Below, piece by piece: positions 1-20,171 of a stretch of 64,000 nt of DNA. How positions within the stretch are numbered: position 1 is the first letter of the stretch; each line of letters starts with the position of its first letter. This stretch comes from Endomicrobiales bacterium (GTDB lineage Bacteria > Elusimicrobiota > Endomicrobiia > Endomicrobiales > CAWCFT01), in assembly GCA_963794945.1 (NCBI GenBank), contig CAWCFT010000018.1, forward strand, positions 3,479-67,478, written 5' to 3'. The notes under the pieces are model-generated. The model made no database searches. It was given only the letters and a program-made list of their open reading frames with translations, and had not been told where the DNA came from. Position numbers and translations under genes: made by a program.

Positions 1-773
1 GCGCTGGCGGCAGGCTTATAAACTACGGATTCAATATAGGCTCCAACCACATTCCTGAACTCGGCGCTCACGCGTTTTATGGTAACAGGCTGCAGTCCGG
101 TGTAAGTTGCTATGCCGTTTTCTATATTTAACCGTATTCCGGGGATCGAATTCTGAATATCGTCCGCTGTTGCTAAATAGAACTCCTTACAATTACTTTT
201 AACGGTAAATTTGTCGCCATTTTTAACTGTTATGGGTTTATTCAAGTCATACCAGATCGCATGCCATCCGGCGCCGCTGGCTTCACCGAGAAACGAATTG
301 CTTGTCAGGTCAGTTTCTCTTGAAACTTGGGGTGCCGTTGTCGTTACAGTTGGTTTATTTACATTTCCCTGCTGAGCCTGATCACTTTTTTTCTGCGTGT
401 CTTCTGATGAAATGATCGATGCGCCTTTCACCCAGCTAACCGCAACATCATCTATCTTGTACGTTGAAGGCATGAAAAGCCTGAAAGGGTTGGTGAACGG
501 ATAGTTTTTGAACAGATATAACAGCTGGTCCCAGGCCGTGCTTGCAAGCGCGGAGAATGTTTTCGGCATTGCCCACCAGCCCCATTCGGTATTGGTCTTT
601 ATGGTAGTTTTTGAAGTTGAATACGGGCTTAAACCATCCGGAAAACGTTGTTTGTCAAGGGATGCCTGCATTGAACCGGCATATTTTTTAAGCTCCGCGC
701 TCTGCTGGCTTTTACCAATGCTGTTGAGGTAATCCGCGGTTTTTATCAGTCCGCTACCCAGAACCTGCTCCAC
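1..773 (-). CDS. Giant gene A, last visible segment. The frame is open to the left window edge. Covers the end of a six-hairpin-like domain plus a beta-rich C-terminal region.
   Basis: My own minus-strand translation has no stop from 773 down to 1 (..QVLGSGLIKTADYLNSIGKSQQSAELKKYAG..TEWGWWAMPKTFSALASTAWDQLLYLFKNYPF..GWHAIWYDLNKPITVKNGDKFTVKSN..). It is missing from the ORF track because it has no in-window start or end. It continues 746..1252 after a frame change near 750-773. Confidence 0.6.
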   Translation of the reverse strand, partial: MEQVLGSGLIKTADYLNSIGKSQQSAELKKYAGSMQASLDKQRFPDGLSPYSTSKTTIKTNTEWGWWAMPKTFSALASTAWDQLLYLFKNYPFTNPFRLFMPSTYKIDDVAVSWVKGASIISSEDTQKKSDQAQQGNVNKPTVTTTAPQVSRETDLTSNSFLGEASGAGWHAIWYDLNKPITVKNGDKFTVKSNCKEFYLATADDIQNSIPGIRLNIENGIATYTGLQPVTIKRVSAEFRNVVGAYIESVVYKPAAS

Positions 774-1252
774 TCAAAACTGCCTACTCCTCTTTGAGCG
801 GATTCCTGGCTGAAACTCATCTCAACGATGTTCTTCTGGCTGTCAAAAACGCCGAAATTATCAATAGAATTCTTTACAAGGTTATATATGAAACCTTCGC
901 CGTACATTTCGTCCAGGGTTTGAAGGTTCGAATAATTGCCATCGCCGCGGTCGGTGCCTAGTATAAGCCAAGCAATAACATCAGAAGCCGAGGCTTTGCC
1001 CATCTGCCACTGGCTTCCGGTGAATTCATACCCCTGAACTATGACCGGTTTTGTCTTGTCGCCGTTCTGAAACGTGACTGTTTTATTGAACAGGAACTTC
1101 TCCGCCGCAATAGCTGCGGCTTTATACCTTGCGTCACCCGTAATGCTGTACAGGTTCCACATACGCGTGGCAAACTCCACGTTCTCAACCGAAACCACAG
1201 TATAATAATAAGCCGCATTCCCGCCAGGATGCCACTGCCCTTTAGGCCCCAT
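746..1252 (-). CDS. Giant gene A segment (six-hairpin glycosidase-like region, middle part)
   Basis: 168-aa ORF (..GGNAAYYYTVVSVENVEFATRMWNLYSITGDARYKAAAIAAEKFL..ASDVIAWLILG..). It overlaps 1242..1703 by 11 nt. The shifted frame upstream reads ..LQMKDGPAKGAFRMGPKGQWHPGG.., continuous with the previous piece. Confidence 0.75.
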   Translation of the reverse strand: MGPKGQWHPGGNAAYYYTVVSVENVEFATRMWNLYSITGDARYKAAAIAAEKFLFNKTVTFQNGDKTKPVIVQGYEFTGSQWQMGKASASDVIAWLILGTDRGDGNYSNLQTLDEMYGEGFIYNLVKNSIDNFGVFDSQKNIVEMSFSQESAQRGVGSFEWSRFWVAD

Positions 1253-1703
1253 GCGGAACGCTCCTTTTGCGGGGCCGTCCTTTCATCTGCAGGTACAGCA
1301 TAGCGTCAGCTATCTGTCGGGCCATCTTAAGCGCTTCATCAGCAAGAGCTTTGTCAGCGGAATAGTTCTTATTGAGGTATTGGTAGGCATCCATGAAGAA
1401 GCCCATAAGCCAGGCATTCTCACCGGTTATTGCGTGCCATTGGCGCCAGTTTCTTGGCTCTCCCGTAAGGGGGTCAATTACGTTCCAGGGCCCAAGGAAC
1501 TTGAAGAAGTAGCCGTTTGAGTTATCTATTGCGGTATTCGCGGCCGCCGAGCCATAATCGAACGGATGCTCCGCGCTGCCCGGGATGTAATACGCGCGAG
1601 GCTGGCTCTGCATCTGCTGAACATAATAAACCACAGCGTCGTGGACGCGTTTATCTTTGTTATCTGAGCGCATAAGCGCTATAAGCGCAGCCAGCGGCGT
1701 CAT
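1242..1703 (-). CDS. Giant gene A segment (six-hairpin glycosidase-like region, first part)
   Basis: 153-aa ORF (..PLAALIALMRSDNKDKRVHDAVVYY..WHAITGENAWLMGFFMDAYQYL..). It overlaps the end of 1660..9153 by 44 nt, where ..GSLTYD joins ..PLAALIAL.. after a 1-nt shift. Confidence 0.75.
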   Translation of the reverse strand: MTPLAALIALMRSDNKDKRVHDAVVYYVQQMQSQPRAYYIPGSAEHPFDYGSAAANTAIDNSNGYFFKFLGPWNVIDPLTGEPRNWRQWHAITGENAWLMGFFMDAYQYLNKNYSADKALADEALKMARQIADAMLYLQMKGRPRKRSVPHGA

Positions 1704-4700
1704 AAGTTAGCGAGCCGTATTTGGCTATCACCCTCATTTCAGCGTCTGTATCATTTCTGGCGCTGAAACCAGCAAAGGCTTCAGGCTTTATACTGCCGTC
1801 AGAATTAACATACTCGGGCCTGGGAACAAAGCTTGAGGGAAGCGAACCGTTCTTTTGCGCGTCTTTCATTACGCCAAGCAGAGCTTCGTACACTTTTGAC
1901 TGCTGAGCGTCTATCTTGGGCGCATACTGGGCCTGGCCAGGCTGAACCGGCAGAGTCGCCTGAGCTGAACCCGGCCTTACTCCCAACGTAAACATTGAAA
2001 GCATGGTAAATACCAGCGCTAATACGGTTATCTTCGCTCCGGTAATAAACCTTCTCTTTTTGGCGCTTGAGTTATTTACTTCTATCTCCTGCGCGTTGCG
2101 CTGGTATACTACCATTGAAGAACCATATTTGAGATCATTGTGTTTTAACAGCTCTTCGCGGGCATCTTGGAGGCTTCTATTGTTTACTTTTGTATATTGC
2201 CGGCCTAATACAGGGTCAAAATTATAGCCTATACGGCTATCTCTAGAGTTGTCATTAAGCAGCATAAAACCACCGGTTTTAACCCAGGGCTGGACAGTGT
2301 TCAAATAACGGAAATCTTTGTCCTGGACTTCCATGGTAGCTTTTTGAATAAAAACATCCAGTTTCCCGGCCATCTCGCTGTTTAGTTCATCTCCGATATT
2401 TGTCATATCCTGGTTTACAAATATGACAAACCGTTCAACATCATCTCCGCTCAACCGGAAGGTTAACTGCGGCCTGCCTTTCTCGTCATAACCCGTGCGC
2501 ACATCTTCCTTGCGCACGCCTAGAAGCCTGAGCTGTTGTATTATATAGAGTTCAGTTAGATCTTCGAACTCGGAGAAAAAATAAAACCCGTTAGAATAAT
2601 AGTTTTGTAAATCTAAAACCTCGATCCTATGGTTCCAGGTTCTAAGTTGAACATCTAGTATTTCTTTGGACACTTTTTGCTTGTCATAAAAATAGGCCGT
2701 CTTGAAATTGGTTTCAAAATACGCGGTTAAAATATCGGGACCAGCGAACGCATAGCCAATTGTCTTGTCAGGTTTGCCCTGAGGATTAACTGTTTGGAGA
2801 AATGATCTGAAATAACTTGTCAGGTAAGGAGACATTATCTTTTTATCCGCGACCGCAAACGCCACTGAATCCATTAATTGTTTCTGCGTATAGTAGAAGG
2901 CATTGGCAGGTTTTGCTTCTAAATTAGGCGCGTTTACAGCGGGTAAATACTTTTCTGTAATTTCTTGAAGCAGGCCGCGCACATCACTGACAAGATAAAC
3001 GCCGTTTGGGTGGCGCCATGCGTGTGAAATTAAATACTGCTGCATTAAGCTCGCCAGAGCGCTGTCTTTTTTAAATGTTATAAATTGCCCTGCTGACGCG
3101 CTATTTTTATTGCCCTGGGCAATAACAATAGCGTTTTCCGGTGCGTGAAAATCCTTGGGAAATTGCGCGGCCGCCATGCCGCGGGAGCTGTAAAATACAC
3201 CGTTATCAGAAAGCAATGATATTATTTTTTCAAAAACCGGGTTAACTGTATTTTCATCAGTATAGTAAAGGGGCCCGCAGTCTTCATGAATGTAATCATA
3301 CTTGTGGTGAATAAGCGCGCGTGGGTCTTCAAAAAAGCCTAAATATTGGTTGCGTACTGCTGGTTTTGATAACACATCAAATATTTGGCAGCCCTGTTTC
3401 TGCATGCTGAAAATGAGCTTAAGCGGCATTTGGGAATCATCTCTGACAAAAAAACCGAGTAAATGCGATACGGGCGTGGCGTCAAAATTAATTCTGTTCA
3501 GTTCTCTGTTAGCTGCTGCCCCGACATATTCTCTCATACCGGGTAGAGCGGCTTTTGGATTGGCCGCGGCGAATTGTTTTAGCCAATCTATTATTTCCGA
3601 AGCTTTCATCCGCAATAAATAGCTTGGCGCGAACGGCGACAGCCCTACGGTATCTATTTCAGGGGTGTACCCAGCCGCTCTGCTTAATATGAACATATCG
3701 CTTACCGCATGCCCCGCTCCATGGCCGAGTTCGAGGATCTGCGGCTTTTGCGTATGCCCGCTATTCAACGCAAGATAGAACGCGTCTCTGGCTGTTATAT
3801 CCAGCGATCTGGTATTGTCACCGGCCAATCCGTTTAAAACGCTAAATTTATCATCTTGCGCTTGAATCGGGAAATTAATAATTATACCATCTCTACGTGC
3901 CTGGTCTATGTCAGCTTTGTAACCCGCTTCGCTTAATTCTTTAGGGCTTATCAAAGGATTTGTCGTTTTAAATGAGTTATTATCTTTGATAAACAGCGCC
4001 AGCTCGGCTATTGGCATCATTTTCCGCGTAAGGTTTATTCCGGGAATAAGCGCTGTTAACTCGGAGGTGATTTCTATCTGCGTGTTCAGTACCGCGGCTT
4101 TAATGAGGTTCTCGGCGTTTTCGATAAGGGCAAGCTCATCCGCAAGCGACGGATCGGTTTTTGTTTTTTCTTTCACGAATGAATGGTAGGTTTCTATCGG
4201 GTTTGTTATCTTGGGGTGTTGAGCTTTATAGGCATTGAATTCCTTGTTGTTTCCTTTCAATGCATCCATTTCATTTTGCTCGTGCCTGATCATCGCCCCG
4301 TGTTCGGCATCTGTCTTGAAATTTTCCCAGAAACCTTCAGAAACAAATATCTCGCCCGCGTCAGTTATAGAAGCGTAACCATAAACCCCGGGCGAAATAT
4401 ACATGCTTCCGGCTGGGTAGTTGCCCTGGTATGTTGTTACCTTTACCCCGTTGATAGTTGTTGCCGGATATTTGATGGAAGGTACTCTAACTGTTGAGAA
4501 TATTACGTTAAGCATAATTGTTTGGCATATCGCATCGGCAAGTTTTTCAGCACTTTTGATACCGGCAGCCGCCAGCGCTTCAGTGACAGCTGTGTTTATA
4601 ACCACACCCAGAGCCGGTTTCTCAAATTCTCCATTACCAGCTGTAATATTGCGCGTATTTTTCATGTCTTTAAGCTTTTCCAGCCCTTCCCTGGCAGTGT

Positions 4701-7700
4701 TTATATGCAGTTTATCTTTTAGGGTTTTTAGATCCAAAAGAAGTTTTTGCTTATATAAAACAGCGTCATCAATAGTCTCATATAACCTGTTAACTGGCAG
4801 CAAACCAAAAAATTCCAACCCATATTTAACCACCTCGTCCGGAGTTTGATTTAGAATTCCGCTTTGAGGGTATATTTTGTTATCAGCGCATAATTCCAGG
4901 GTTATAAGCACTTTACTTATCTTCTCAGCGCTGTCCAATTCATCCAAGTTTTTTGGCTCATAATGAGGATCCCTCAAGGATTTATACGCGAACTCAAACT
5001 CAGGCCTTGTAATGCCAGCTGGATCTATGCCGGAATCCTTGAGCGTTTTGTAGGCGCGTTCAAAAACTGACGGCGTCGCGCCGCTTATAAAGGCTATTCT
5101 CATTGCCTTTAAGAACGCAATTTTTGCTTCTTGCGGTATGTTAGAGTATTCAAGCGCCATAACCGCGTTGAATTTGTCGGATTTACGCGTCACTTCATAT
5201 AGCGTGGAATTATTATCATGCATCGCAGCGAAATCCCGTTCATTTATACCTGCGAATATACCCTGGTCCTTAACATAGTCCATTACCAGCTCTTTAAGCC
5301 CGATATATCCATCATTAATGTACTGCTTACCGGCCAGGACCAGGTATGCCGCACGGGCGTCTTCTCTAGGCAAAACTTCATTTAATTCGAATAAACTGAG
5401 GAATTTCCAAAATGGCGAGTCCGGGCCGTAGGCCTTTTTCTCAGGAACGCTTTCCAGGGCGCTGAGTATTACTTCCCGCGCCTCACGTGAATAAGGAAAA
5501 AGCCGATTGGATATATCGATCTGCAAACTTGTAACTATTTCCTGTTCTTCTTCACTAAGGTGGGGTTTTTTTGCAGTTTCTTTGTATATAATCTCCCGCT
5601 CGACAGTATTGCCCTCAGTTTCATCCGGCTTTGAAATTTCACGCTGCATTCCGTTCCCAGGCACAAACTTGGGAAGACTCTGCCATGAATCTTCAGGCTG
5701 TATGTCGGACTTCTCTGCAAGGTGCCGATGTAAAGTTGATTTAGGTATTGGTGTTAGTGTTTGATATTGGCTAATCCTTGCTTTCAGAACGTCTATTTTG
5801 CTCTTATGTAAAAGGTTGCCGTAAATAGTATCGATCAAAACAATAATCGTAATGGTTGTAATAAATGCAACCGCTGTCACTTTGGAAATTTGATCATCAG
5901 CCATTAGCTGTATCTGAGCTTGTTGGGAGAGCACCTCGCCGACCGCGTTAGCGCCGGTCAATGTCAACAGTGCGGCTGTCATGCCGGCCCTGAACCAGCC
6001 AGCCTGCGGCGCTGTTCCTTCTTCACCTTGGGCGGGTATAGAAGCCTCATCTTCATCATGAACTGCGGCTATTTGAGGCACATTTTCATCTTGGTTTTCC
6101 TTTAGAAACGATCCTTCATCCTGCATCGCTTTGAGGCTTTTATCATATAATTTCAATATAAAATCATTGCGCGCTTTCACCAGCTCTTCTGTGAAAGCTT
6201 TTGTAACTTCCATGGTGCCAGGCGTGAATACACCCGCGTAGGCTCTGCCTTCAAGCCCTGTGCCGGAAGGCCTTATAAGCACCCAGTACTCCGCACCGCT
6301 TTGTTTCTCTTCAAAGTAGATTTTAACGCCGTCAAGCCGGTCTACCCGCAGTATTTTACGGCCGAATATCTCGCCCGTACCTATTTGAGCTTCCAGGCCT
6401 TTCATTACTCTGCCCCAGAATTCATCCTTTTTCTTCTTAGTAATTTCTTTGGGGAAATAGATGCTTTCTGTGTCCGGTTGATAGTAGTTACCATATTTCT
6501 TGTATAAGTTCTCCAGCATCTGGCTGATAGTCAGCCCGTTCATCTTACCCCAGGCCGCCATTTCCATGAAAAGCGCCTGAGCTATCAGGCCGTCTTTATC
6601 CAGCTCCCATCCTATTCCCTTTTTATCCAGCGCCTTGCCGGCTGTTAAACCGCCGCTGCCCATTTCGAAAGCTATGGAGATATTTTCGTTCTTTAATAGT
6701 TCCTGAAACTCTTTGAAGCCTATCTTGGTGCGCTCGGCAACGGGCCCTATTTTTTCGCACATATCAGTTCCATCTGTGCAGGTGGCCAAAATGCCGCCCG
6801 TTTTCCTGATATTCTGCGTGTACCAATGCAATAGCACGCACGCTTCATAGAATTTCAGCCGGCTGCCGTGTTCATCTACAAAATACAGCCGGTCGCCGTC
6901 CCCATCCGTGGCACCGCCGCCGTCTTGTTTTTTCTTCACCACTTCATCAGAAAGATACTGTAATTGTAAGTATTTTTCTGTATTTGGCCCGCTCTCCAGC
7001 CCGCCAAAATCCGATAGCGGCTCCTCTTTCATTATATCAACAATCCCCGGAAGAATGGCATCAAATATGCCTTTTGCCCAGGGGCCCGCGGCGCCGTTTT
7101 GTGTTGTAAACGACCACGAAAACCCTTTTTCTTTGGCGGCTCTTTTTATCATATCTACATCTATGAAATCTTTCATGCGGTTGGCGGTGTACTCAATTAC
7201 TTTTGCCGTGTCCACAAATTGGAAGTTCTTGTCTTTGCTGAAATCACCTGCAAAGCGTTTGACGCCTGTACCGGTATTAATGATCTCGTTCGCGCGTTCC
7301 TGCAGGGGGACGGAGAGTTCCGTGGAGATCAGGGCTCCCTGGTACTTCCCGCCCGGGTTAAATTTGATGCCGTCATCAGACTGCGGGTTGTGCGAAGGTG
7401 TGTTGTTGAAAACACCGACTATAACGCCGTTTTCCCCAAGATCAAATATATCTTTGCCGAACCGCACCATAAGCGCGCCTATGCCCGTTGGCATGACTCC
7501 TTTGAAGAATATTACTTTAAAGCCGTTCGCCAATGCTATACGCGCCTCTTCTTCCTTGTACATCTCATTGTTAGGCCGCGGGTCGCCGCCTATGATAATG
7601 TATTTATCTTTTCCTTTGAACTCCTCCATATTACCCAATAGCTCATAGCCGCTCTGTGCCATAGCCGCCGCAACCCAGGCGCCTACCTGCTCATCGCGCC

Positions 7701-9153
7701 TGCCGCGCTGGCCTGAGGTTCCCAACTTAATAACGTCGAATTTTTTAGATACTTCGTACACCGTGCCGTCATCCGCAACCACCTTCTTATTTGGGTTAGC
7801 GTCCGCAACTTTATATGTTTTTTTTGCGATATCGGCGTAAGGCTGTTCCCATGACATCTTTTCAGTTACAGCCCTTGCCTTAAGCAATAATGTACTTAGG
7901 TCTTTTTCATTATTATTAGCCTTGATGTCATTTTCCAGAGTTGCAAGAAGTTTTTTGCGTTCCTTAAGACTATTTTTAAGTATCTCTTCCCCTTTCATTT
8001 TTGTGAAATCTTCGCTGTTGAGAGCGGTCAAATCAAGAAGAAGCTTGATCTCAAGCTCCTTGAAACGCTCATAGTAAGCGGAAAGATACCCGGCCTGTGC
8101 AGCGTTACTATTGAAACGTACTGTTTGTTTTAATTGATAAAAACATTCAAAATAACTGTTGAAATATTCATTGCACAGCTTATAGATGTCACGAACTTCT
8201 GGATATGCGAATTTTAGTACTTTATACTCCAATTTACTGCGTTCAAATTCTCCAAGAATGGTTTCGTTATTCGCTTTTTCCCAGTTGCGCAATATTCGCT
8301 CGTAGGGGGTTCCCTGGTAGATCCTCATAGTATTGAGAGGCGCAACCATTGTGGGAAGTATACCTGATTTCTGTATGAACAGAGCGTTCTCGCGCAGTTC
8401 CTGTTTGGTAACCAATGGATCGAACATTATAAAGCCAGATTGTATCTGAAGGTTATGCTTACGTAATATTTGAATAGCTTTCTGGGCTGTTTCCGGAGGT
8501 GCCCCCTTTCCAAAACGTTTCAGCTGTGATTTTGACCCCGACTCTACTCCCAAAAATACCGTTCTCAATCCGATGTCATATAACATATCCAACTCTTGTT
8601 CGATGAGCGCCTGCAATTGTGGATCCTCAACTGAAATAGCGTCTACGCGCGCATTACAGTAAAATCCAATGTCTTTCAGGTTTTCTTTTTTTAGCAGTTG
8701 TGTAAATTTTATAATGCGTTCCACATTTTCCCGGTCATTGCCTAAAAACTCTTCATCTGAAAAAATAATAGACCTTGCACCAAGGCCATAGAGCTGCCTG
8801 ATATCCGTTATCACATTTTCCACTGGCCGCTGTGTCCAGTAGCCCTTTGGATTGCCCCAGAATTGATGTACTGAGCAGAAAGTACATCTTCCCCAGGGAC
8901 ATGCCCTTCCATTTTCCACATAAACATTACCGCCAAGCTTGATGACCTTATCAATACCCGAGTAATCAGGCCGTACGTATTCTCCAAGGTCAGAAATTCT
9001 TTCCCTTTTCGTATAGATTGTCTTCCCATTTTCCAAATAGGCGATATTCCTTACATCCTGCAAGCTTCTGGTACCATTGACATATTCTACAAGGTCATGA
9101 GCGGCAAGCTCCCCTTCTCCAACTACACAAATAGCTTTGGGGTATTTTGCCAA
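1660..9153 (-). CDS. Giant gene A, main segment (2497 codons). Holds the radical-SAM core, coiled coil, phosphohexomutase, a TM pair, a methyltransferase-like region and a late TM helix.
   Basis: Uninterrupted 7.5 kb ORF. The called TTG start sits inside an open shifted frame that continues the upstream ORF. Domain motifs are listed as separate features. Confidence 0.9.
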   Translation of the reverse strand: MAKYPKAICVVGEGELAAHDLVEYVNGTRSLQDVRNIAYLENGKTIYTKRERISDLGEYVRPDYSGIDKVIKLGGNVYVENGRACPWGRCTFCSVHQFWGNPKGYWTQRPVENVITDIRQLYGLGARSIIFSDEEFLGNDRENVERIIKFTQLLKKENLKDIGFYCNARVDAISVEDPQLQALIEQELDMLYDIGLRTVFLGVESGSKSQLKRFGKGAPPETAQKAIQILRKHNLQIQSGFIMFDPLVTKQELRENALFIQKSGILPTMVAPLNTMRIYQGTPYERILRNWEKANNETILGEFERSKLEYKVLKFAYPEVRDIYKLCNEYFNSYFECFYQLKQTVRFNSNAAQAGYLSAYYERFKELEIKLLLDLTALNSEDFTKMKGEEILKNSLKERKKLLATLENDIKANNNEKDLSTLLLKARAVTEKMSWEQPYADIAKKTYKVADANPNKKVVADDGTVYEVSKKFDVIKLGTSGQRGRRDEQVGAWVAAAMAQSGYELLGNMEEFKGKDKYIIIGGDPRPNNEMYKEEEARIALANGFKVIFFKGVMPTGIGALMVRFGKDIFDLGENGVIVGVFNNTPSHNPQSDDGIKFNPGGKYQGALISTELSVPLQERANEIINTGTGVKRFAGDFSKDKNFQFVDTAKVIEYTANRMKDFIDVDMIKRAAKEKGFSWSFTTQNGAAGPWAKGIFDAILPGIVDIMKEEPLSDFGGLESGPNTEKYLQLQYLSDEVVKKKQDGGGATDGDGDRLYFVDEHGSRLKFYEACVLLHWYTQNIRKTGGILATCTDGTDMCEKIGPVAERTKIGFKEFQELLKNENISIAFEMGSGGLTAGKALDKKGIGWELDKDGLIAQALFMEMAAWGKMNGLTISQMLENLYKKYGNYYQPDTESIYFPKEITKKKKDEFWGRVMKGLEAQIGTGEIFGRKILRVDRLDGVKIYFEEKQSGAEYWVLIRPSGTGLEGRAYAGVFTPGTMEVTKAFTEELVKARNDFILKLYDKSLKAMQDEGSFLKENQDENVPQIAAVHDEDEASIPAQGEEGTAPQAGWFRAGMTAALLTLTGANAVGEVLSQQAQIQLMADDQISKVTAVAFITTITIIVLIDTIYGNLLHKSKIDVLKARISQYQTLTPIPKSTLHRHLAEKSDIQPEDSWQSLPKFVPGNGMQREISKPDETEGNTVEREIIYKETAKKPHLSEEEQEIVTSLQIDISNRLFPYSREAREVILSALESVPEKKAYGPDSPFWKFLSLFELNEVLPREDARAAYLVLAGKQYINDGYIGLKELVMDYVKDQGIFAGINERDFAAMHDNNSTLYEVTRKSDKFNAVMALEYSNIPQEAKIAFLKAMRIAFISGATPSVFERAYKTLKDSGIDPAGITRPEFEFAYKSLRDPHYEPKNLDELDSAEKISKVLITLELCADNKIYPQSGILNQTPDEVVKYGLEFFGLLPVNRLYETIDDAVLYKQKLLLDLKTLKDKLHINTAREGLEKLKDMKNTRNITAGNGEFEKPALGVVINTAVTEALAAAGIKSAEKLADAICQTIMLNVIFSTVRVPSIKYPATTINGVKVTTYQGNYPAGSMYISPGVYGYASITDAGEIFVSEGFWENFKTDAEHGAMIRHEQNEMDALKGNNKEFNAYKAQHPKITNPIETYHSFVKEKTKTDPSLADELALIENAENLIKAAVLNTQIEITSELTALIPGINLTRKMMPIAELALFIKDNNSFKTTNPLISPKELSEAGYKADIDQARRDGIIINFPIQAQDDKFSVLNGLAGDNTRSLDITARDAFYLALNSGHTQKPQILELGHGAGHAVSDMFILSRAAGYTPEIDTVGLSPFAPSYLLRMKASEIIDWLKQFAAANPKAALPGMREYVGAAANRELNRINFDATPVSHLLGFFVRDDSQMPLKLIFSMQKQGCQIFDVLSKPAVRNQYLGFFEDPRALIHHKYDYIHEDCGPLYYTDENTVNPVFEKIISLLSDNGVFYSSRGMAAAQFPKDFHAPENAIVIAQGNKNSASAGQFITFKKDSALASLMQQYLISHAWRHPNGVYLVSDVRGLLQEITEKYLPAVNAPNLEAKPANAFYYTQKQLMDSVAFAVADKKIMSPYLTSYFRSFLQTVNPQGKPDKTIGYAFAGPDILTAYFETNFKTAYFYDKQKVSKEILDVQLRTWNHRIEVLDLQNYYSNGFYFFSEFEDLTELYIIQQLRLLGVRKEDVRTGYDEKGRPQLTFRLSGDDVERFVIFVNQDMTNIGDELNSEMAGKLDVFIQKATMEVQDKDFRYLNTVQPWVKTGGFMLLNDNSRDSRIGYNFDPVLGRQYTKVNNRSLQDAREELLKHNDLKYGSSMVVYQRNAQEIEVNNSSAKKRRFITGAKITVLALVFTMLSMFTLGVRPGSAQATLPVQPGQAQYAPKIDAQQSKVYEALLGVMKDAQKNGSLPSSFVPRPEYVNSDGSIKPEAFAGFSARNDTDAEMRVIAKYGSLTYDAAGCAYSAYALR
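1984..2050 (-). other. Predicted transmembrane helix separating the enzyme-domain part of A from the glycosidase-like C-terminus
   Basis: KKRRFITGAKITVLALVFTMLSMFTLGV: a basic flank followed by about 22 hydrophobic residues. Confidence 0.6.
3180..3800 (-). other. Class I SAM-methyltransferase-like domain in A
   Basis: ILELGHGAGHAVSD (glycine-rich motif I-like), EIDTVGLSP, YDYIHEDCGPLYY, LLSDNGVFY, in the usual order for a Rossmann-fold methyltransferase. Confidence 0.45.
5815..6005 (-). other. Pair of hydrophobic (TM-like) helices in A
   Basis: GWFRAGMTAALLTLTGANAVGEVL and VTAVAFITTITIIVLIDTIYGNLL, about 20 residues apart. Confidence 0.55.
6240..7740 (-). other. alpha-D-phosphohexomutase (PGM/PMM-type) domain embedded in A
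   Basis: All four family signatures occur in order. KLGTSGQRG; active-site loop TPSHNP (7384-7401); Mg loop DGDGDR (6889-6906); EMGSGG; phosphate-binding loop RPSGTG (6256-6273). Confidence 0.85.
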
Positions 9154-9450
9154 AAGGCCATCAGTATCGAACGTAGGTATATTTTTCCCCCAGAACTAGA
9201 AGCGGCATCTCTTCCGCAAACAGGCGCTCAAACAATTGCAGAATTAACTCGTCTAAAGACTGTGTTGCCCCAATCGGAACGGAAAAGCCCAATATCTTGG
9301 GCCTTATTTCTGCGATCCGGTCAGCTAACTGTGCGTATTCTCCCGCGTTCATTGTTTGAGTATCAAAAAGATGCGGTGCAACTGAAGGGAAAGCGTGTTT
9401 AAGATATCCAACAAGAGAATATAGGCCTGATGGGGAATGGATAATATCCG
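8160..9450 (-). other. B12-binding-like domain plus radical-SAM core in A (split by the 9153/9161 frame break)
   Basis: ..PKILGFSVPIGATQSLDELI..MPLLVLG | (shifted frame) GKNIPTFDTDGLLAKYPKAICVVGEGE.. This is followed by the Cys cluster ACPWGRCTFCS (8875-8901; CX4CX2C rather than the canonical CX3CX2C) and ..VFLGVESGS..GFIMFDP. Confidence 0.6.
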
Positions 9451-11875
9451 TATATCTGGATGAAGTTAAATTGACGAATACAAAATTTATAACCTGTTCT
9501 ATATTCGAAATAGCCTTGAGCGAGTTCGACATCTTTGTTGACAGGAAATTATCGTTGGCACTCGCTTCTGGTTTATCAGTCTGGGGAGAAAGCCCTGTCA
9601 GCTCAAGAAGGATAATGGCCAATACTTTTTTTACAATATTTGATTCATTTTTAAGCGTGTTTATAGCATTTAAGCGTGCAAGTATCATGTTTTGAGCGGA
9701 ATCAGGCAGGCTGGCTATGTCTTCAAGGGGTATCCCTTCAATATCATTTCGAAGTTCGGGATTGTTCTTAATGATCTCATCTATCCCATGTATTAAACCA
9801 TAACCTGTTACATAATTCTCTCTTTCTGCAAACATGAACAGGTTTTTTAAAATAGAATATGTGTTAGGGCACAATGTGCCAAAATCGGCAGTATCTAAAG
9901 CGCCGGTTAGCAAGCTGTTTAGAACATTAAGAGCTACATTAACGGAAACAGCCGCTTGCGCTTTCATCTCACCTGTAAATGTTATCTCTTTTACTGTGCC
10001 TCCGGTTTCTTCTCTGGTTATATTTATAGTTCTATTATTAGCAAGTTCTATCGTTCCATTTGCAAAAGACGCTGATTTTACATTATTTTCTCCCAGAGCG
10101 TCTTTGATGGCTTTAACCAGCGCATCGAACTTATCCTGTGTTAGCGCCGACCCTGACAACTGATGCCTTGCTGCTTCCGACATTAACCTGACAAGCGCGT
10201 CCGTTTTCAATTCCGAAGCTATAGCCAGCGCTAGGCTGTTGGTTCTGAATTGCGCATTCTCTTCTAAAATTTTTGCCTGTTCCTTGGCGGATTCCGCGTA
10301 TAACAGGCTTGAACTTTTCGTACTCTGGCTGATATTAGGAGTTATCGTTATATATGACAACCCTTTGTCTTCCGCTATTTTCTTTAATCCTTGAGTGTGG
10401 AACCCTCCGGTTACTATAACCACTATTTCGGAATTTTTAAGCAGCCCTGAAATTGTAGTATTCTTAGCTGACGGTTCTGGTACACTTTTCCCCGAAACCT
10501 GAAACTCGGAACTCGGAACTGTTTTTAATTCTGTTATATTTTTAACAAAACATTCATTCCTTTTACAATTTGTGTCATAAAATTCATTAAGCAAAGTAAA
10601 ATCTTCACTGAGCTCTGAGACCCTGTCCCTGAAAGCGTATTTTGACCAGATGTCCTTGAATTTCCCGAAACGCTCAACAAAATACCCGTAATCATCCGCT
10701 GATATCTTATTGGATACATAATCTTTGAAATACCCGAAGAAATCGTTTAAGAACGATACTTCCAGCTCGCCTATATCGTTTGCAAATCCCACCCGTATCT
10801 CTTCGACAAGGCGCCTCTGTTCTTCAATCAGTTTTATCGGGTTGACGCCTCTGCTTTTTTCGTTATAATCGAAGAACTGCTTAAGGTCAGGATAACTGCT
10901 CCCAATATCAAGCCTGTACTCGCCGGCTATCTTTGAAAGGCAAACGTAAAGCTCGTCAAGTTTTGAAAAGTTATCGGTCTTTTCGGCCATATCGTTGTAA
11001 ACACCGTAGGGCACATCTCTCTTTACGGCTTGAACGAAATTCGACAGTTCTCCGGATATTTTTGGGTACTTTAAAGACCTGCCAAGCTCCATAAGCTCCA
11101 GGTAACCGCTTATGTTTGGATAATTGTTCATGTCGATGCTTAGCAGGTTGTTGTATTCCCCGGGGCTGGAATTTATATTACGCGCGTATTTGCACAACAG
11201 CCTGTAGAATTTTTCGGCTGGCATCTTGCCGCTCTTATATTCCTCTATCGAGCGGTTAAACCTCTTGTTCCGTGAGTTAAAATATTTGGCCTCCATTACC
11301 TGCAGGTCTTTTTCCAGGCCCTTGATCTTGTTGTTAAAGAATTCCTGTTTGTCCAGTATTTTACCGAGCCTGACAATGTTGGCTTCATGTACGTTCCGGT
11401 CTTCTATGCCTTTCAGCAAGCCCGGCCTGTTTGATTTGACAGAATAATATTCCGAGCCGGTCAGCTTGCCTTCATTAATAAGGTTCTCAATTATTGTTTC
11501 CTTTAATTCTTTATCTTTTATATTGCAAAGCCATGACGTGTCTACGTCCCCATAAGCGCCTTCCACATACACTTTCTTTAATCCGTATTTCGCATCAAGT
11601 TCGCTTAGTATCTTTGCTATGTTCCTCTGCACCTCGGCATGGCAGTGGAGGTCCTGAATGTTAACTATAACCCGATTGGACCGAGTGCCCGCAGGCGCGG
11701 CGGAGAAATCAGTAACCCTGCCAATGCTCTGCCCGATAACCTGTTCTTCCGCCAAAGGCTTAACTTTACCGGATTCCCCGGACATGTCGACAGCGGCGTG
11801 GACAGCCTGCCCAAATACGAACGACACTAGAAAACATGCCGTTGTAATGACCGCGATTAGTTTTTTGTAGTTCAT
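9161..11875 (-). CDS. Giant gene A, N-terminal segment. Holds the signal peptide, the N-terminal region shared with giant gene B, and the first half of a B12-binding domain.
   Basis: ORF track gives 9161..11989. I place the start at the ATG at 11875 (MNYKKLIAVITTACFLVSFVFGQAVHA). GGAGG lies 6 nt upstream and the alignment with the start of paralog B begins here. The segment ends 7 nt before the next ORF, at a GGGGGAAAAA run. Confidence 0.85.
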   Translation of the reverse strand: MNYKKLIAVITTACFLVSFVFGQAVHAAVDMSGESGKVKPLAEEQVIGQSIGRVTDFSAAPAGTRSNRVIVNIQDLHCHAEVQRNIAKILSELDAKYGLKKVYVEGAYGDVDTSWLCNIKDKELKETIIENLINEGKLTGSEYYSVKSNRPGLLKGIEDRNVHEANIVRLGKILDKQEFFNNKIKGLEKDLQVMEAKYFNSRNKRFNRSIEEYKSGKMPAEKFYRLLCKYARNINSSPGEYNNLLSIDMNNYPNISGYLELMELGRSLKYPKISGELSNFVQAVKRDVPYGVYNDMAEKTDNFSKLDELYVCLSKIAGEYRLDIGSSYPDLKQFFDYNEKSRGVNPIKLIEEQRRLVEEIRVGFANDIGELEVSFLNDFFGYFKDYVSNKISADDYGYFVERFGKFKDIWSKYAFRDRVSELSEDFTLLNEFYDTNCKRNECFVKNITELKTVPSSEFQVSGKSVPEPSAKNTTISGLLKNSEIVVIVTGGFHTQGLKKIAEDKGLSYITITPNISQSTKSSSLLYAESAKEQAKILEENAQFRTNSLALAIASELKTDALVRLMSEAARHQLSGSALTQDKFDALVKAIKDALGENNVKSASFANGTIELANNRTINITREETGGTVKEITFTGEMKAQAAVSVNVALNVLNSLLTGALDTADFGTLCPNTYSILKNLFMFAERENYVTGYGLIHGIDEIIKNNPELRNDIEGIPLEDIASLPDSAQNMILARLNAINTLKNESNIVKKVLAIILLELTGLSPQTDKPEASANDNFLSTKMSNSLKAISNIEQVINFVFVNLTSSRYTDIIHSPSGLYSLVGYLKHAFPSVAPHLFDTQTMNAGEYAQLADRIAEIRPKILGFSVPIGATQSLDELILQLFERLFAEEMPLLVLGEKYTYVRY
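10385..11675 (-). other. Conserved N-terminal domain shared by A and B (unassigned)
   Basis: VIVNIQDLHCHAEVQRNI..KKVYVEGAYGDVDTSW..LTGSEYY..(helical region)..IVVIVTGGFHTQGL. It aligns by eye along its length with B 21022..22300. It loosely resembles ChaN/TraB/Tiki-type GxxH...E...GxxH folds, which is speculative. Confidence 0.4.
11795..11875 (-). other. Sec-type signal peptide (or signal anchor) of A
   Basis: MNYKKLIAVITTACFLVSFVFGQAVHA|AVD: a basic n-region, a hydrophobic core and a VHA-A cleavage-like site. Confidence 0.6.
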
Positions 11876-11994
11876 TACAACCTCCACAGATATTAAGTCT
11901 TGTATTTTGATATATCCGCCTTTTCGGCGGGTTATTTCCCGCGATGCGATCACGGGAAATAAAAAAACCCGATCGCGCTTTATGCGCAACCGGG
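11876..11994 (-). promoter_or_regulatory. Structured leader upstream of giant gene A: a terminator-like hairpin with a U-run, then two further hairpins. Homologous to the leader of B.
   Basis: Read on the minus strand. H1 is cccggttgcgc/gcgcgatcggg (11968-11994) followed by T7 (11961-11967). H2 is atttcccg/cgggaaat (11934-11960). H3 is cccgcc-gaaaa-ggcgg (11916-11931). GGAGG and the ATG follow. Confidence 0.55.
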
Positions 11995-12480
11995 CGTGCA
12001 GATCCTGATAATAGCTATCTCTGCAGGAAGATTGCCCCTGGACAGCAACACGAAATACATAAGTAAGAATATACTTATAAACCCGCCATAGTGCTCATTC
12101 TGTTTCTCACCCGGCGGGCTGCCGTTTGAAACTTGAGCCCTGAAATTCTCTAACAATTTGCCATTATCCTTACTTAGGTTTTTGCTTATGTATTTGGCCA
12201 TACTCTTAGAAACAGCGTAAACACATGAGGTATTGTTACTATCAGTCCCCTGGGTGTCTTTATTGTGCCTATATTCGGGCTTCAGCGGCTCTCCGTTCTT
12301 TACCATATCCGCTACTGCCCGGCACGGCAAACCTATATTCCCAATGAAGTTAAATACCGGTGACTGTATATCGCCGCAATTAGGCAAAAAGCCGCCAGGT
12401 TCGGCCAAAACAGCGCCTAAACCCGCGAGACCGTTCACCAGCAGGCACAATACAATTAATAAAACAATTCGTTTTTTCAT
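11980..12480 (-). CDS. Small exported Cys-containing protein with a C-terminal hydrophobic helix, upstream of giant gene A
   Basis: ORF track gives 11980..12495. The likely start is MKKRIVLLIVLCLLVNGLAGLGAVLA at 12480. The protein has a signal peptide, scattered Cys residues, and the tail ..SPPGEKQNEHYGGFISIFLLMYFVLLSRGNLPAE... It has the same architecture and position as 20272..20763. Confidence 0.6.
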   Translation of the reverse strand: MKKRIVLLIVLCLLVNGLAGLGAVLAEPGGFLPNCGDIQSPVFNFIGNIGLPCRAVADMVKNGEPLKPEYRHNKDTQGTDSNNTSCVYAVSKSMAKYISKNLSKDNGKLLENFRAQVSNGSPPGEKQNEHYGGFISIFLLMYFVLLSRGNLPAEIAIIRICTPGCA

Positions 12481-12581
12481 TCTTAGTTCCGGCATAAGTA
12501 TACTGTTTGGTGATATTACCCTAAATTGATGAAAAAAATGAAAATATCTTGTGATATTATTGTAAAAAACGTTTGCGAAAT

Positions 12582-12610
12582 ATTATAGGGCTATTCCGCT
12601 GGAAATACAA
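12582..12610 (-). promoter_or_regulatory. Sigma70-like promoter for the small ORF / giant gene A unit
   Basis: The minus strand reads TTGTAT - 17 nt - TATAAT (-35 at 12605-12610, -10 at 12582-12587), about 100 nt upstream of the 12480 start. Confidence 0.4.
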
Positions 12611-12642
12611 GGGCTGTATATTGTTTTAAAAAATTGGGGGCT

Positions 12643-13164
12643 TTATTTAGACTGCTCGGCTTCCAGCTTATTAAAAGCTTTTTCAGCGTTTTCTTTAATG
12701 TATTTTTTTACGCTTTCGCTCAGTTCACTTACCTGTCCGGCCATGTTTTTCAGGTCTTCAATATTAAGCGCCGCAAGGGAATAGGCTGTTTTGCCGTTAT
12801 CCCAGCGGTCCGTTATCTTTATGCCTGAAACGGTGTTTGAGGCGAATGTTTTGACTGTATTTTCAATGTATTGTTCACCACTTGTTTTCTCGGGGTCAGT
12901 GGCTGAAGTTGAGGCCATATAATCACGCATCAGAGAAGTTGACATAACCGATATTTGCTTAGACACCTCGGCTATCGCGCGGTTGTCAGCGGTAGTACGC
13001 CTTAGGGCCGCGGAATTCACTCCTTCAACTATGCCAACACCGTAAAGCACCTTTTTCTCTTTAGGGAATGCGCCCGCGCCCTTAGTTACCCAAGCGGGCT
13101 TACCGCCGCCAGTCGCACAACCAAAAAGAAAAAATGCACTCATAATCAAAAGCGTTTTCTTCAT
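12643..13164 (-). CDS. LPP20-family lipoprotein
   Basis: Signal peptide with lipobox FLFGC, then ..PAWVTKG..VLYGVGIVEG..AALRRTTADNRAIAEVSKQISV.., the pattern typical of LPP20-like lipoproteins. Confidence 0.6.
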   Translation of the reverse strand: MKKTLLIMSAFFLFGCATGGGKPAWVTKGAGAFPKEKKVLYGVGIVEGVNSAALRRTTADNRAIAEVSKQISVMSTSLMRDYMASTSATDPEKTSGEQYIENTVKTFASNTVSGIKITDRWDNGKTAYSLAALNIEDLKNMAGQVSELSESVKKYIKENAEKAFNKLEAEQSK

Positions 13165-13233
13165 GATATCCTCCCTTTAATGGCCTTTCCAGACAGCGGC
13201 TAGTATTGAAAAACCGGACTATCGTTAACTTGT

Positions 13234-14646
13234 TTATTGAGCTGAACGGACTACGACAAAAGTTTTTTTGCCAGGCTTTATCATTACATCTCCAATCAGG
13301 CGCGACGAAACTTCCATGCCTGCCTTATCGAAATATTTTATGTTAACCGGATGCTGCCCCTGGGGCAGGATCAGGCGGGTAACTATGATCTTATCAGGCA
13401 GAGAACGCCATGAGCGTTTATCCGCAAGCTCTGTCGCTGTCGAGGCAGCCGTTAAAAGCTTTTTCGCGAGCCACCCGGACAACTCCCCGCTTGACTGCTC
13501 CACTTTCTGGCTTATGTTCCTGGCCAGCGCGAACTTTATAACAGACCTTACAATGGCCTTTATGCGGATCCTTGCTATCCTGTCATCAAGGCTTTTCTCG
13601 GCTATCCTGCCTATATCTTCGGCTATCTCGCCTTTTGCTGTCGCGATACCCGCCACAGATGCCTCAAGCCCCGTTATCTGATATTTTACCGGAACATACT
13701 TGGGGAAAGCCATCCTCACTTGCTCATCTGAGGCTATTGACCTCGCTATCGCCCCTGCCTGCTGCACCTGCTCCTGTTCGTCACCCTTCGCGTCAACCTG
13801 GCCTACATACGCCCATCCCCAGCCAAAACTGAATTCGAAGAAACTGTCTATCTTTTCAGGTGAAAAACCGTTATAGTCAAGCAGGACAAGCTCGCCGTAA
13901 CCAGCCGGGATTTTCACCGGTTCCACGTTCTTATAATTGTTCCTTATTTCTTGTATTTCATCGCTGAACCCCAGTATATCGGCTGTCCTGATGGCATCGC
14001 TGATAAGCTCTTTGGGAGTCGTCACGCCGTAATCTTTAACATACTGCTTGTAAGCTTCCAGAGCCTGCCTGTACGATATATATGCGTCGTTTGTCTCGCC
14101 CTCATTTTCGTAGAGCATGCCCATCAGGTAGCGGACGAACGCGTCTTCTTTGTAGACACTTTTATGGCCGTAGTTGGTCTGAAGTGTTTTAAGCAGCTGG
14201 TCAGCCTGCCTTGCCTCGACAAGGGCTTCCTGCTCCTGGCCAAGCATGATATAATTCAAAGATGAAAAAACATTTACCATAGCCCGTTCAAAATCTTCGC
14301 CGTAATACGGGCGCATGTTGTCGCTTATAAGGAAAGTTGAAGCTTCTGTAGTGACGCTTTTAGTAAAAAGGCTGAGCGAGAGCTTTTTTGCCCGTTCAAA
14401 AGCCTGGTTGCTTTCGGTGTAGTTGCCCGCAAGCTGGAGAAGCATGCCGCGGTCAAGATAATACATCAGCGCGTTTTTCTGGCCGTAGATGTCTTCCTTA
14501 GATTTTTCAGTTAGTGCGGCCGCGTCAGCGTATTTTTCTCTTGAAACAAGGCCGTTAAGCTCAGTGTAATACGCCGACCTTGTCGCGCAGGAGGCAATAA
14601 AGACAAGCGACACCAGCGAACATTTCAATATCTTTGAATATAACAT
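13234..14646 (-). CDS. Lipoprotein with N-terminal TPR-like repeats (family unassigned)
   Basis: 470-aa ORF with lipobox FIASC. It has TPR-like helical pairs (..YYLDRGMLLQLAGNYTESNQAFERA.., ..YLMGMLYENEGETNDAYISYRQALEAY..). It sits between two other lipoprotein genes on the same strand. Confidence 0.55.
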   Translation of the reverse strand: MLYSKILKCSLVSLVFIASCATRSAYYTELNGLVSREKYADAAALTEKSKEDIYGQKNALMYYLDRGMLLQLAGNYTESNQAFERAKKLSLSLFTKSVTTEASTFLISDNMRPYYGEDFERAMVNVFSSLNYIMLGQEQEALVEARQADQLLKTLQTNYGHKSVYKEDAFVRYLMGMLYENEGETNDAYISYRQALEAYKQYVKDYGVTTPKELISDAIRTADILGFSDEIQEIRNNYKNVEPVKIPAGYGELVLLDYNGFSPEKIDSFFEFSFGWGWAYVGQVDAKGDEQEQVQQAGAIARSIASDEQVRMAFPKYVPVKYQITGLEASVAGIATAKGEIAEDIGRIAEKSLDDRIARIRIKAIVRSVIKFALARNISQKVEQSSGELSGWLAKKLLTAASTATELADKRSWRSLPDKIIVTRLILPQGQHPVNIKYFDKAGMEVSSRLIGDVMIKPGKKTFVVVRSAQ

Positions 14647-14671
14647 TGATACCTCAAAACAAGAGAAAGCT

Positions 14672-14768
14672 CAAAGGTTCAAAAGTTCAAGGGTTAAAAT
14701 GTAGATTTCAAAACCAGTACTTGATCTTGAAATTTTACCAGCGGTTATCCTTGAACCTTTGAACTTTG
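14672..14768. repeat. Long imperfect inverted repeat (about 20-nt arms) in the intergenic gap between two lipoprotein genes
   Basis: caaaggttcaaaagttcaagg (14672-14692) pairs with ccttgaacctttgaactttg (14749-14768). A smaller inner hairpin is atttcaa..ttgaaat. Confidence 0.7.
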
Positions 14769-14791
14769 AATTTTTTATCTGTATTATATGT

Positions 14792-15394: not shown

Positions 15395-15457
15395 TTTATT
15401 CCTCCTTGTATTATATTGAAAATATTTCCATAAGTTTCATCGCCAGTTGAAAATACA

Positions 15458-15664
15458 TTATATCCTGTTCTTTCCGGTAACGGATTTTTCCCTGTTGACA
15501 CTAAAGGGGCCAAAAACTTTTTGGATACCTGTTAAGAATTTTATATATTCGTCCAATGAATGTGAGCATTTAACATTTATGTCCCTTGCTTTAGCAAACA
15601 TCTTTTTTCTGTAGGGGCTATAAGCATCTTCGATCATTTCCTTTTTTTCTTCGTTACTTAACAT
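15458..15664 (-). CDS. Small hypothetical protein overlapping the end of the nucleotidyltransferase gene
   Basis: 68-aa ORF whose start overlaps the upstream ORF by 11 nt. No motif recognised. Confidence 0.35.
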   Translation of the reverse strand: MLSNEEKKEMIEDAYSPYRKKMFAKARDINVKCSHSLDEYIKFLTGIQKVFGPFSVNREKSVTGKNRI

Positions 15665-16207: not shown

Positions 16208-16215
16208 CTAAACCT

Positions 16216-17373: not shown

Positions 17374-17374
17374 T

Positions 17375-20154: not shown

Positions 20155-20171
20155 AACTACATATCCATCTA

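Follow-up and report, generated by a model that had tools for sequence, protein, structure and literature searches.

Five reading frames of an Elusimicrobiota contig form one giant gene, probably broken by residual assembly indels

We analysed a 64,000-nucleotide stretch of DNA (the window) in which five minus-strand frames, running from position 11875 to position 1, make up one bacterial gene of more than 14,000 bases, here called gene A. It is probable that gene A is a single intact Elusimicrobiota gene, 4,675 codons long or longer, and that its four breaks (J1 to J4) are residual single-base indels of a long-read (nanopore-type) consensus. The open reading frames, and the pieces of gene A that were delimited from them, are as follows:

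9161–11989, minus strand: ORF 1, 942 aa
1660–9153, minus strand: ORF 2, 2497 aa
1242–1703, minus strand: ORF 3, 153 aa
746–1252, minus strand: ORF 4, 168 aa
9164–11875, minus strand: piece 1, 904 codons from the ATG at 11875 to a premature stop at 9161–9163
1663–9189, minus strand: piece 2, 2509 in-frame codons, 2497 of them within the listed ORF
3–773, minus strand: piece 5, frame not yet closed where the window ends; corresponds to codons 1–257 of P0125, a 973-aa database protein

As originally predicted, the 942- and 2497-codon ORFs lie 7 nt apart, measured between the stop of one and the earliest start codon of the next, and position 11875, which had been given as the end coordinate, is the likely ATG start, with a GGAGG ribosome-binding site upstream. 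A length beyond 11.9 kb had also been proposed and was borne out by leftward extension through P0125, which carries gene A 716 codons beyond position 1 and brings the product to at least 4,675 aa. Past the window edge, P0125 goes on with β-rich modules that repeat, two hydrophobic segments and a stretch also present in P0054 and P0001. A C-terminal module conserved in many members of the protein family described below is absent from the end of P0125, and a search for a further piece of gene A found none. The exact 904-aa product of piece 1 has been recorded for two contigs, the 81.7 kb source contig and one from Logan.

That the breaks interrupt one gene agrees with the homologues, which give single HSPs over each junction, and with piece 1, which bears the N-terminal module shared by a family of giant proteins. 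Because single alignments to intact homologues span every break, the continuity of gene A is not due to chance. The breaks were placed as follows:

9182–9191, minus strand: J1, a GGGGGAAAAA run that is one base too long or two bases too short in the window
1691–1693, minus strand: J2, probably one surplus G in GCCGCT[G]GCTGCG
1279–1281, minus strand: J3, one extra base in CTGCAGATGAAAGGACGG
755–780, minus strand: J4 (near 758), one base missing between ..FEWSRFW and GSGLIKTADY

The G5A5 run of J1 had been put at about 9165–9180; it sits at 9182–9191. ORF 1 does end in ..MPLLVLGEKYTYVRY followed by a stop, and the same bases in the +1 frame read GKNIPTFDTDGLLAKYPKAICVVGEGE. The proposed LLVLGGKN, by contrast, requires two added bases, since a one-base skip yields LLVLGKN; a reading with GG agrees with six of seven homologues. 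P0103 and P0104 each align over J1 as a single HSP. A Logan contig, L002 (ERR11523656, 6,243 bp), matches window positions 14317 to 8075 with zero indels, and shares with it both the G5A5 run and the truncation of the product to 904 aa. Because L002 carries the identical run, J1 cannot be put down to a single slip in the deposited consensus; either a true change or a systematic error would account for it, and if ERR11523656 represents short-read data, then J1 is real. Within gene A a second assembly covers J1, through L002, and J2 to J4 are seen in the window assembly alone.

J2 to J4 are spanned by alignments to P0039, P0134 (46% identity) and P0135 (42%). With the extra base removed, J2 reads GCTGCTGCG, which contains two GCTGC motifs, and the homologues are one residue shorter than a two-base repair. 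At J3 the P0134 and P0135 alignments pass straight through, with any gaps falling away from the junction, and at J4 both align gaplessly. The three further breaks foreseen in the six-hairpin domain exist, at about 1691–1693, 1279–1281 and 758; the interval suggested for the second of them, 1242–1260, misses J3, which lies just outside it at about 1279–1281.

Repair of the four breaks gives a protein with the following features:

11789–11875, minus strand: putative signal peptide or membrane anchor (MNYKKLIAVITTACFLVSFVFGQAVHAAV), Kyte-Doolittle peak at residues 7–25
9566–11875, minus strand: N-terminal module that defines the family (~770 aa, with a ~540-aa core), by homology to giant-protein N-termini
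7921–9502, minus strand: B12-binding plus radical-SAM core (OxsB-like), across J1, by Pfam, NCBIfam and OxsB alignment
8875–8901, minus strand: Cys triad CPWGRCTFC, within the radical-SAM core
6493–7728, minus strand: phosphoglucomutase/phosphomannomutase domains I–III (PF02878, PF02879 and PF02880, all above cut-offs)
7384–7401, minus strand: catalytic (serine) loop motif TPSHNP of the phosphohexomutase domain
6889–6906, minus strand: metal loop DGDGDR of the phosphohexomutase domain
5824–5985, minus strand: hydrophobic pair, putative transmembrane hairpin by hydropathy scan, preceded by a GWFRAGMTAALLTLTG segment
4066–4485, minus strand: conserved segment (..SEGFWENFKTDAEHGAMIRHEQNE..), matching the family members P0032 (46%), P0002 (54%) and P0012 (33%) by blastp and without a Pfam match
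1993–2049, minus strand: putative transmembrane helix by hydropathy scan, directly before the six-hairpin domain
456–1929, minus strand: (α/α)6 six-hairpin glycosidase-like domain, over four reading frames, by intact homologues, AlphaFold and Foldseek

Each domain is continuous across its break. A B12-binding domain split at G5A5 had been predicted, and OxsB (5ul2) indeed aligns through the junction into the Cys triad (E 2.4e-32; residues 57–392 of the 472-aa repaired segment). Likewise, on repair the Pfam B12-binding match extends from profile positions 12–64 (E 0.12) to 12–120/121 (E 6.7e-6), although the repaired PF02310 score of 26.4 bits stays below the 32.1-bit cut-off. The radical-SAM match (PF04055) reaches 54.6 bits against a cut-off of 29.5 bits. 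NCBIfam B12-radical-SAM models also cross J1, with all matches far below their cut-offs (the best were TIGR04014, 102.7 bits against 360, and BchE, 93.7 against 481), and the domain could be assigned to no named subfamily from these models. OxsB, a cobalamin-dependent enzyme of oxetanocin biosynthesis, has the same order of B12-binding and then radical-SAM domain over 336 aligned residues, and its C-x4-C-x2-C triad, CDYSRCTFC, corresponds to CPWGRCTFC. Whereas OxsB is free-standing, its gene A counterpart, a predicted cobalamin/SAM enzyme, lies inside a giant protein.

The next enzyme domain shares domains I–III and both loops with the α-D-phosphohexomutases (PGM/PMM/GlmM). It differs from these in being fused into a giant membrane protein and in having no detected domain IV (no PF00408 match at E ≤ 0.01). 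NCBIfam GlmM/PGM models match gene A below their (equivalog) cut-offs.

P0134 (46%) and P0135 (42%) are intact homologues that align over the whole six-hairpin domain, and residues invariant in 21 homologues are kept in all four of its pieces, with D77, E170, E248, D316 and E385 as invariant or near-invariant acidic residues. The repaired domain was modelled by AlphaFold with a pLDDT of 91.1 and a pTM of 0.92. In agreement with the six-hairpin glycosidase-like fold suggested originally, the top Foldseek matches to this model were (α/α)6 enzymes, namely GH88 (unsaturated glucuronyl hydrolase), cellobiose 2-epimerase (AGE), GH76, GH15-like and GH47 (probability 1.00, E down to 8e-7, target-normalised TM 0.5–0.63); nearly all of the best 50 PDB matches were (α/α)6 or related α/α-toroid enzymes. 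The fold is that of the six-hairpin superfamily, but sequence identity to it is only 9–14%. Neither the domain nor its 21-sequence profile had a significant Pfam or PDB sequence match (the best, GH47 at E 0.023, came from one member only), and these searches placed it in no defined GH/CAZy sequence family. It forms a sequence family of its own with ~78 representatives, found in giant proteins and as stand-alone proteins of ~500 aa.

By homology, gene A is a member of a family of more than 120 Elusimicrobiota and Omnitrophota giant proteins with a common N-terminal module of ~540–770 aa and variable enzyme cargo. The module is 21–53% identical to ~116 proteins (31–53% for the Elusimicrobiota majority, 23–25% for some Omnitrophota proteins), with E down to 1e-200, and is always N-terminal. 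Its motifs QD-H (11639–11656) and GG-H (10394–10408) are invariant and conserved in position in the family, and the hydrophobic N-terminal segment is conserved among members. No sequence match to the module was found in Pfam, NCBIfam or PDB. Glycolytic enzymes, kinases, PEP-utilisers and others form the cargo in relatives; in gene A the cargo is radical SAM, PGM and six-hairpin. The same window holds gene B, a gene A paralogue of ~35 kb, which has the conserved C-terminal module.

The contig carries indels that are lacking in a second assembly of the same population. Compared with the window, L003 (ENA contig_96815, 11.7 kb) shows 99.33% identity and 41 gap openings, and it restores the frame at the exact site in all four of the other broken genes that it covers:

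16014: break in NTP_transf_5, frame restored by L003 and also by the Logan contig L001
18258: break in PFK, frame restored by L003
near 19710: break in the response regulator, frame restored by L003
T run with its first T at 22146: break in gene B, T5 in L003 against T4 in the window

One T added at the last of these gives gene B a 1,894-codon read-through. In the part covered by L003, breaks occur at ~1 per 3 kb, the density found in gene A. Differences between the assemblies concentrate at GCWGC, CTGCAG and CAGAC (11 of 42 events against 2.4 expected, for a motif set picked after viewing the data); J2 lies inside GCTGC and J3 is 6 nt from CTGCAG. All inspected breaks are frame changes, with no nonsense codons among them. 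It counts against assembly error that three of the four gene A breaks are insertion-like, when deletions make up three of the four errors verified elsewhere. Even so, the evidence points to assembly error, a cause on which the original observation had taken no position. The contig has the character of a long-read assembly in which some indels were left, and West-Roberts et al. (10.1101/2023.11.21.568195) report giant genes truncated by this artefact in long-read assemblies before Illumina correction. In those cases single-base indels shift the frame, as we propose for gene A; the described cases were Illumina-corrected, whereas gene A is uncorrected and its J1 recurs in a second assembly.

We considered whether real mutations underlie the frameshifts, or J1 at the least, by which gene A was freshly inactivated or split. 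Gene A would then encode a 904-aa protein that carries the N-module and stops halfway through the B12 domain, and would leave remnants that are either untranslated or translated on their own; two assemblies do share both G5A5 and the truncated 904-aa product. However, ~11 kb downstream lack any nonsense codon and keep all family-invariant residues and catalytic-type motifs. The break density of gene A equals the demonstrated error rate of the contig, and the housekeeping PFK is broken likewise, yet the other assembly restores its frame there. Additionally, ORF 2 downstream has only a TTG start, and the 20 nt before it hold nothing that resembles a GGAGG ribosome-binding site. Real mutation is, in our view, unlikely. 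Even less can be said for the ORFs being separate neighbouring genes whose continuity is coincidental. Gene callers entered them as separate products, but the B12-binding and six-hairpin domains are each divided between adjacent ORFs in different frames, and intact homologues and a confident single-domain model span the junctions, which contradicts this reading and leaves it with next to no probability.

It is also very improbable that J1 is a functional recoding site or switch setting the ratio of N-module alone to full-length protein, either by +1 slippage of tRNA-Gly on GGG_G or by slipped-strand phase variation of the G/A run. GGG_G would permit perfect re-pairing in the +1 frame, which is the correct one, and the run is identical in two assemblies. 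Against a functional site, the domain-bearing homologues found (OxsB, P0103, P0104 and P0108) all use one frame, GAA, an ordinary codon, occupies the A site in the 0 frame, and the stop comes seven codons later; the same observations speak against a prfB-type programmed +1 frameshift. Runs of five are short for phase variation. J1 consists of runs of 5+5 nt with no long homopolymer, and no length polymorphism was seen between the window and L002, which speaks against a phase-variable contingency locus. Three more breaks, in unrelated contexts, interrupt gene A and also count against a special role for J1.

If the breaks are residual indels, as we favour, the errors may have arisen from methylation motifs and short homopolymers. 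The protein would begin with a signal or anchor helix and the ~770-aa family-defining module, followed by enzyme domains parted by hydrophobic segments (OxsB-like B12 radical-SAM, phosphohexomutase, conserved segments and (α/α)6 glycosidase-like) and lastly by β-rich modules. Such an architecture suggests a chain of enzymes that is tethered to the membrane and has sugar or envelope substrates. More tentatively, and less likely than not, genes A and B may belong to a 'head-cargo-tail' giant family not previously described as such, centred on Elusimicrobiota and extending to Omnitrophota, in which a conserved head and tail flank freely exchanged enzyme cassettes; it would represent a distinct means of anchoring whole pathways at the membrane. 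The head (~550–770 aa), with invariant D75, H77, E105, E142 and H493, may serve as an enzyme or assembly domain that is yet to be characterised. The cassettes would range from near-complete glycolytic sets in some relatives to the B12-radical-SAM, phosphohexomutase and new six-hairpin family of gene A, and adjacent TolC/HlyD/MacB genes could export or service these proteins.

Nielsen & Lui 2026 (10.64898/2026.06.07.730766) and West-Roberts et al. 2023 describe 'multi-enzyme metabolic cluster' giants of Omnitrophota that, like gene A, are very long, bear a signal peptide or TM segments and combine unrelated enzyme Pfams. In this literature, sugar-metabolism domains are reported in giant genes, and PGM/PMM and radical SAM fall into one co-occurrence module of Omnitrophota giants. 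Gene A differs in belonging to Elusimicrobiota (the TyrRS is 74% identical to that of an Elusimicrobiales MAG), in its smaller size (4.7 kaa or more, compared with 10 kaa or more in those giants) and in being defined by a conserved N-terminal module, of which no mention was found in the searched passages of Nielsen & Lui 2026 and West-Roberts et al. 2023.

Five 'genes' of the public record and at least seven pieces of gene B are fragments of two giant genes, and the housekeeping PFK and the response regulator on the contig are also falsely broken. Counts of pseudogenes, protein lengths and 'split domains' from such long-read MAGs will be wrong without indel correction, and the motifs at which the discrepancies gather (GCWGC, CTGCAG and CAGAC) suggest places to check. 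Repaired, gene A adds a combination of B12-radical-SAM, phosphohexomutase and six-hairpin domains to the recently described, little-studied giant multi-enzyme proteins, together with an N-terminal module without known relatives that is common to more than 120 giant proteins.

Gene A, the giant gene on the minus strand, lies in the window in five pieces, and these are one gene. The minus-strand ORFs of 942 and 2497 codons named in the original prediction were both recovered by ORF listing, and frame translation extends the series to the window edge:

9161..11989, minus strand, ORF of 942 aa
1660..9153, minus strand, ORF of 2497 aa
1242..1703, minus strand, ORF of 153 aa
746..1252, minus strand, ORF of 168 aa
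773 down to 3, minus strand, frame open up to the window edge

The gene likely starts at ATG 11875, which has GGAGG upstream, and the N-terminus of its product, MNYKKLIAVITTACFLVSFVFGQAVHAAV, looks by hydropathy like a putative signal or anchor helix. On translation, the first ORF ends in ..MPLLVLGEKYTYVRY and a stop, and the same bases shifted by one position read GKNIPTFDTDGLLAKYPKAICVVGEGE. The GGGGGAAAAA run held responsible for this break (J1) does exist, but its true site is 9182-9191, about ten bases from where it had been placed. At the other end, the database protein P0125, a 973-aa product from the same 81,703-bp contig, starts at the last break (J4) and adds 716 codons past the window edge. 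Repaired gene A therefore has at least 4,675 codons and is, as predicted, longer than 11.9 kb. Because P0125 lacks the conserved C-terminal module of the family, the true end of gene A may lie further on, with another frame break expected beyond P0125; a word-indexed protein search did not find this module from the source contig. Protein cluster look-ups returned no other copies of the gene A pieces at ≥90% identity.

The original prediction also held that a B12-binding domain is split at J1, and searches with the repaired segment gave matches that span the junction. The Pfam B12-binding model covered profile positions 12-120 of 121 in this segment (E 6.7e-6, under the cut-off), compared with 12-64 only in the unrepaired first ORF (E 0.12), and Radical_SAM scored above its Pfam cut-off. 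Additionally, the cobalamin-dependent radical SAM enzyme OxsB (5ul2) gave a single alignment over query residues 57-392 (E 2.4e-32), running through J1 and the Cys triad. Two giant proteins, P0103 and P0104, matched in single HSPs across J1, and NCBIfam B12-radical-SAM models span it as well, none at its cut-off. GG occupies the J1 position in 6 of the 7 homologous domains of a small alignment; judged by these homologues, a loss of two bases (G6A6 read as G5A5) would fit J1 at least as well as a gain of one. Exact-pattern scans of GTDB genomes and JGI metagenomes with the J1 flanks gave no match, a protein-guided scan of the JGI metagenomes found only relatives at 30-32%, and an LPP20 neighbour look-up returned a Logan contig overlapping the window (L002) again and nothing else.

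The other three breaks lie within a six-hairpin (α/α)6 glycosidase-like domain. A word-indexed protein search with the C-terminal domain of gene A found P0125 only and missed close relatives, while an exhaustive HMMER search with the six-hairpin domain gave 78 hits. Among these, P0134 (46% identity) and the 505-aa stand-alone protein P0135 (42%) are intact relatives, whose alignments run across all three breaks and, with the reading frames, place them as follows:

~1692, minus strand, J2, one extra base
~1280, minus strand, J3, one extra base
~758, minus strand, J4, one missing base

Residues invariant in 21 homologues are present in every piece of the domain. AlphaFold was useless on the single sequence (pLDDT 38.8) and succeeded only with the 21-sequence alignment, giving the repaired domain a pLDDT of 91.1 and a pTM of 0.92. 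The top Foldseek matches of this model (GH88, cellobiose 2-epimerase, GH76, GH15-like and GH47) are all α/α-toroid enzymes, in agreement with the fold originally proposed. Pfam, NCBIfam, PDB sequence and profile searches assigned the domain to no known family. About 78 representatives (P0134-P0207) make up the sequence family of this six-hairpin-like domain, which has no Pfam model; some are giant proteins, the largest of 7,464 aa, and others are stand-alone proteins of about 500 aa. P0134 carries two copies. Following the domain in gene A are repeated β-rich modules (window 3-455 and P0125 residues 107-400; ..GWHAIWYDLNKPITVKNGDKFTV.. and ..GGWKTASFSLGSPISVKPGDVVTIQF..), which are similar to repeats found around the corresponding domain of P0004 and P0039; they may represent carbohydrate-binding modules.

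Evidence on the origin of the breaks comes from other assemblies of the same population that overlap the window. L003 (ENA ERZ25039472, contig_96815) aligned to 26024..14250 with 99.33% identity and 41 gap openings. For every other frame break of the window within its span, including one in the paralogue gene B, the L003 base call at the exact site restores the frame:

15654-16207, minus strand, NTP_transf_5 split by one indel (break 16014), in frame in L003 and in the Logan contig L001
17925-18847, minus strand, phosphofructokinase (PFK) split by one indel (break 18258), in frame in L003
18899-19874, minus strand, response-regulator/HD protein split by one indel (break near 19710), in frame in L003
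starting at 22146, plus strand, T run at the gene B break, with one extra T in L003

Addition of one T to the 22146 run yields a 1,894-codon read-through of gene B that matches the gene A N-module, the conserved N-terminal region of the family, in a single HSP. L003 has broken genes of its own, TyrRS for example, which differ from those of the window. Assembly-specific breaks occur about once per 3 kb, a density equal to that in gene A, and all inspected breaks are frame changes, with no nonsense codons. West-Roberts et al. (10.1101/2023.11.21.568195) describe exactly such an indel artefact in giant genes of long-read assemblies. That G6+ runs are scarce in the window was also considered as a sign of homopolymer compression, an argument dropped as too weak.

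It is quite likely that all gene A breaks are artefacts, and the "domain cut in two" probably does not exist in the organism. Counter-evidence at J1 comes from L002 (ERR11523656), which differs from 14317..8075 by seven substitutions, shows no indel against it and carries the same G5A5; that some breaks, chiefly J1, are real is nevertheless rather unlikely. Several of the seven substitutions lie at GCTGC or are CAGAC/CAAAC swaps, and L001 ends beside a CAGAC site on one side and a discrepant base near GCAGC on the other, which leads us to suspect that ERR11523656 is also long-read data. GCWGC, CTGCAG and CAGAC, motifs picked post hoc, account for 11 of 42 assembly-difference events (2.4 expected); J2 lies within GCTGC and J3 adjoins CTGCAG. 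The concentration of disagreements at these motifs, CAGAC/CAAAC swaps included, in 14250-26024 against L003 and 8075-14317 against L002 suggests that they are DNA methylation motifs of the organism that upset base calling.

Gene B lies on the opposite strand and is followed directly by transport genes:

20832-56334, plus strand, gene B, another giant gene, ~35.5 kb (~11,800 codons if its pieces are joined), N-module at its start and family C-terminal module at its end
56763-62725, plus strand, genes for a TolC-like outer-membrane protein, an HlyD-type adaptor and a MacB-type ABC transporter

The N-modules of genes A and B share 49.7% identity. Gene B has at least 7 frame breaks, and its cargo includes HD, TPR, GNAT, GT2, cytidine deaminase, HAD and HATPase_c domains. 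The transport genes could serve to export the giant proteins. An overlap of 157 nt between the HlyD and MacB ORFs may mark a further frame break.

The first ~770 aa of gene A have counterparts at the N-termini of about 116 proteins, which are 2,200-6,900 aa long, with identities of up to 53%; the carriers belong to Elusimicrobiota/Endomicrobia, with weaker matches in Omnitrophota. Q74, D75, H77, E105, E142, R439, G490, G491 and H493 are invariant in the alignment. Sequence and profile searches found no relative of the N-module in Pfam, NCBIfam or PDB, and a full-text search found no description of the shared module in the portions of the literature it reached. Its H…E…GG-H pattern may recall the Tiki/TraB/ChaN-type hydrolase superfamily, a likeness that we do not claim. 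The middles of these proteins differ widely (PGM, PGI, PFK, PGK, enolase, aldolase, PEP-utilisers, kinases, radical SAM). P0048, P0049, P0074 and others carry many glycolytic enzymes between the N- and C-terminal modules of one 3,500-5,500 aa polypeptide, with PGM, PGI, PFK, PGK, adenylate kinase, TPI, GAPDH, enolase, aldolase and PGAM found in relatives of this type. HExxH occurs in 51 of 120 family proteins, against 8 after shuffling, and not in the part of gene A seen; as a sequence pattern, this excess hints at embedded metalloprotease-like segments.

By its TyrRS, the host belongs to Elusimicrobiota, a phylum noted in the literature as enriched in uncharacterised huge proteins. The cargo of gene A comprises the B12-radical-SAM enzyme, a phosphohexomutase whose domains I-III include the motifs TPSHNP and DGDGDR, conserved unknown segments, hydrophobic segments and the six-hairpin domain; its middle ~1,340 aa and P0125 had no match in Pfam, NCBIfam, PDB sequence or profile searches. 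The giants described for Omnitrophota (10.64898/2026.06.07.730766; 10.1101/2023.11.21.568195) are "multi-enzyme metabolic cluster" proteins that carry signal peptides and TM helices, and PGM belongs to the same domain module as radical SAM there. Gene A likewise pairs PGM with radical SAM, and is a further member of this kind of giant multi-enzyme protein. Its product would be a membrane-tethered polypeptide, a single chain that would hold sugar-phosphate, radical-SAM and glycoside-processing activities together.
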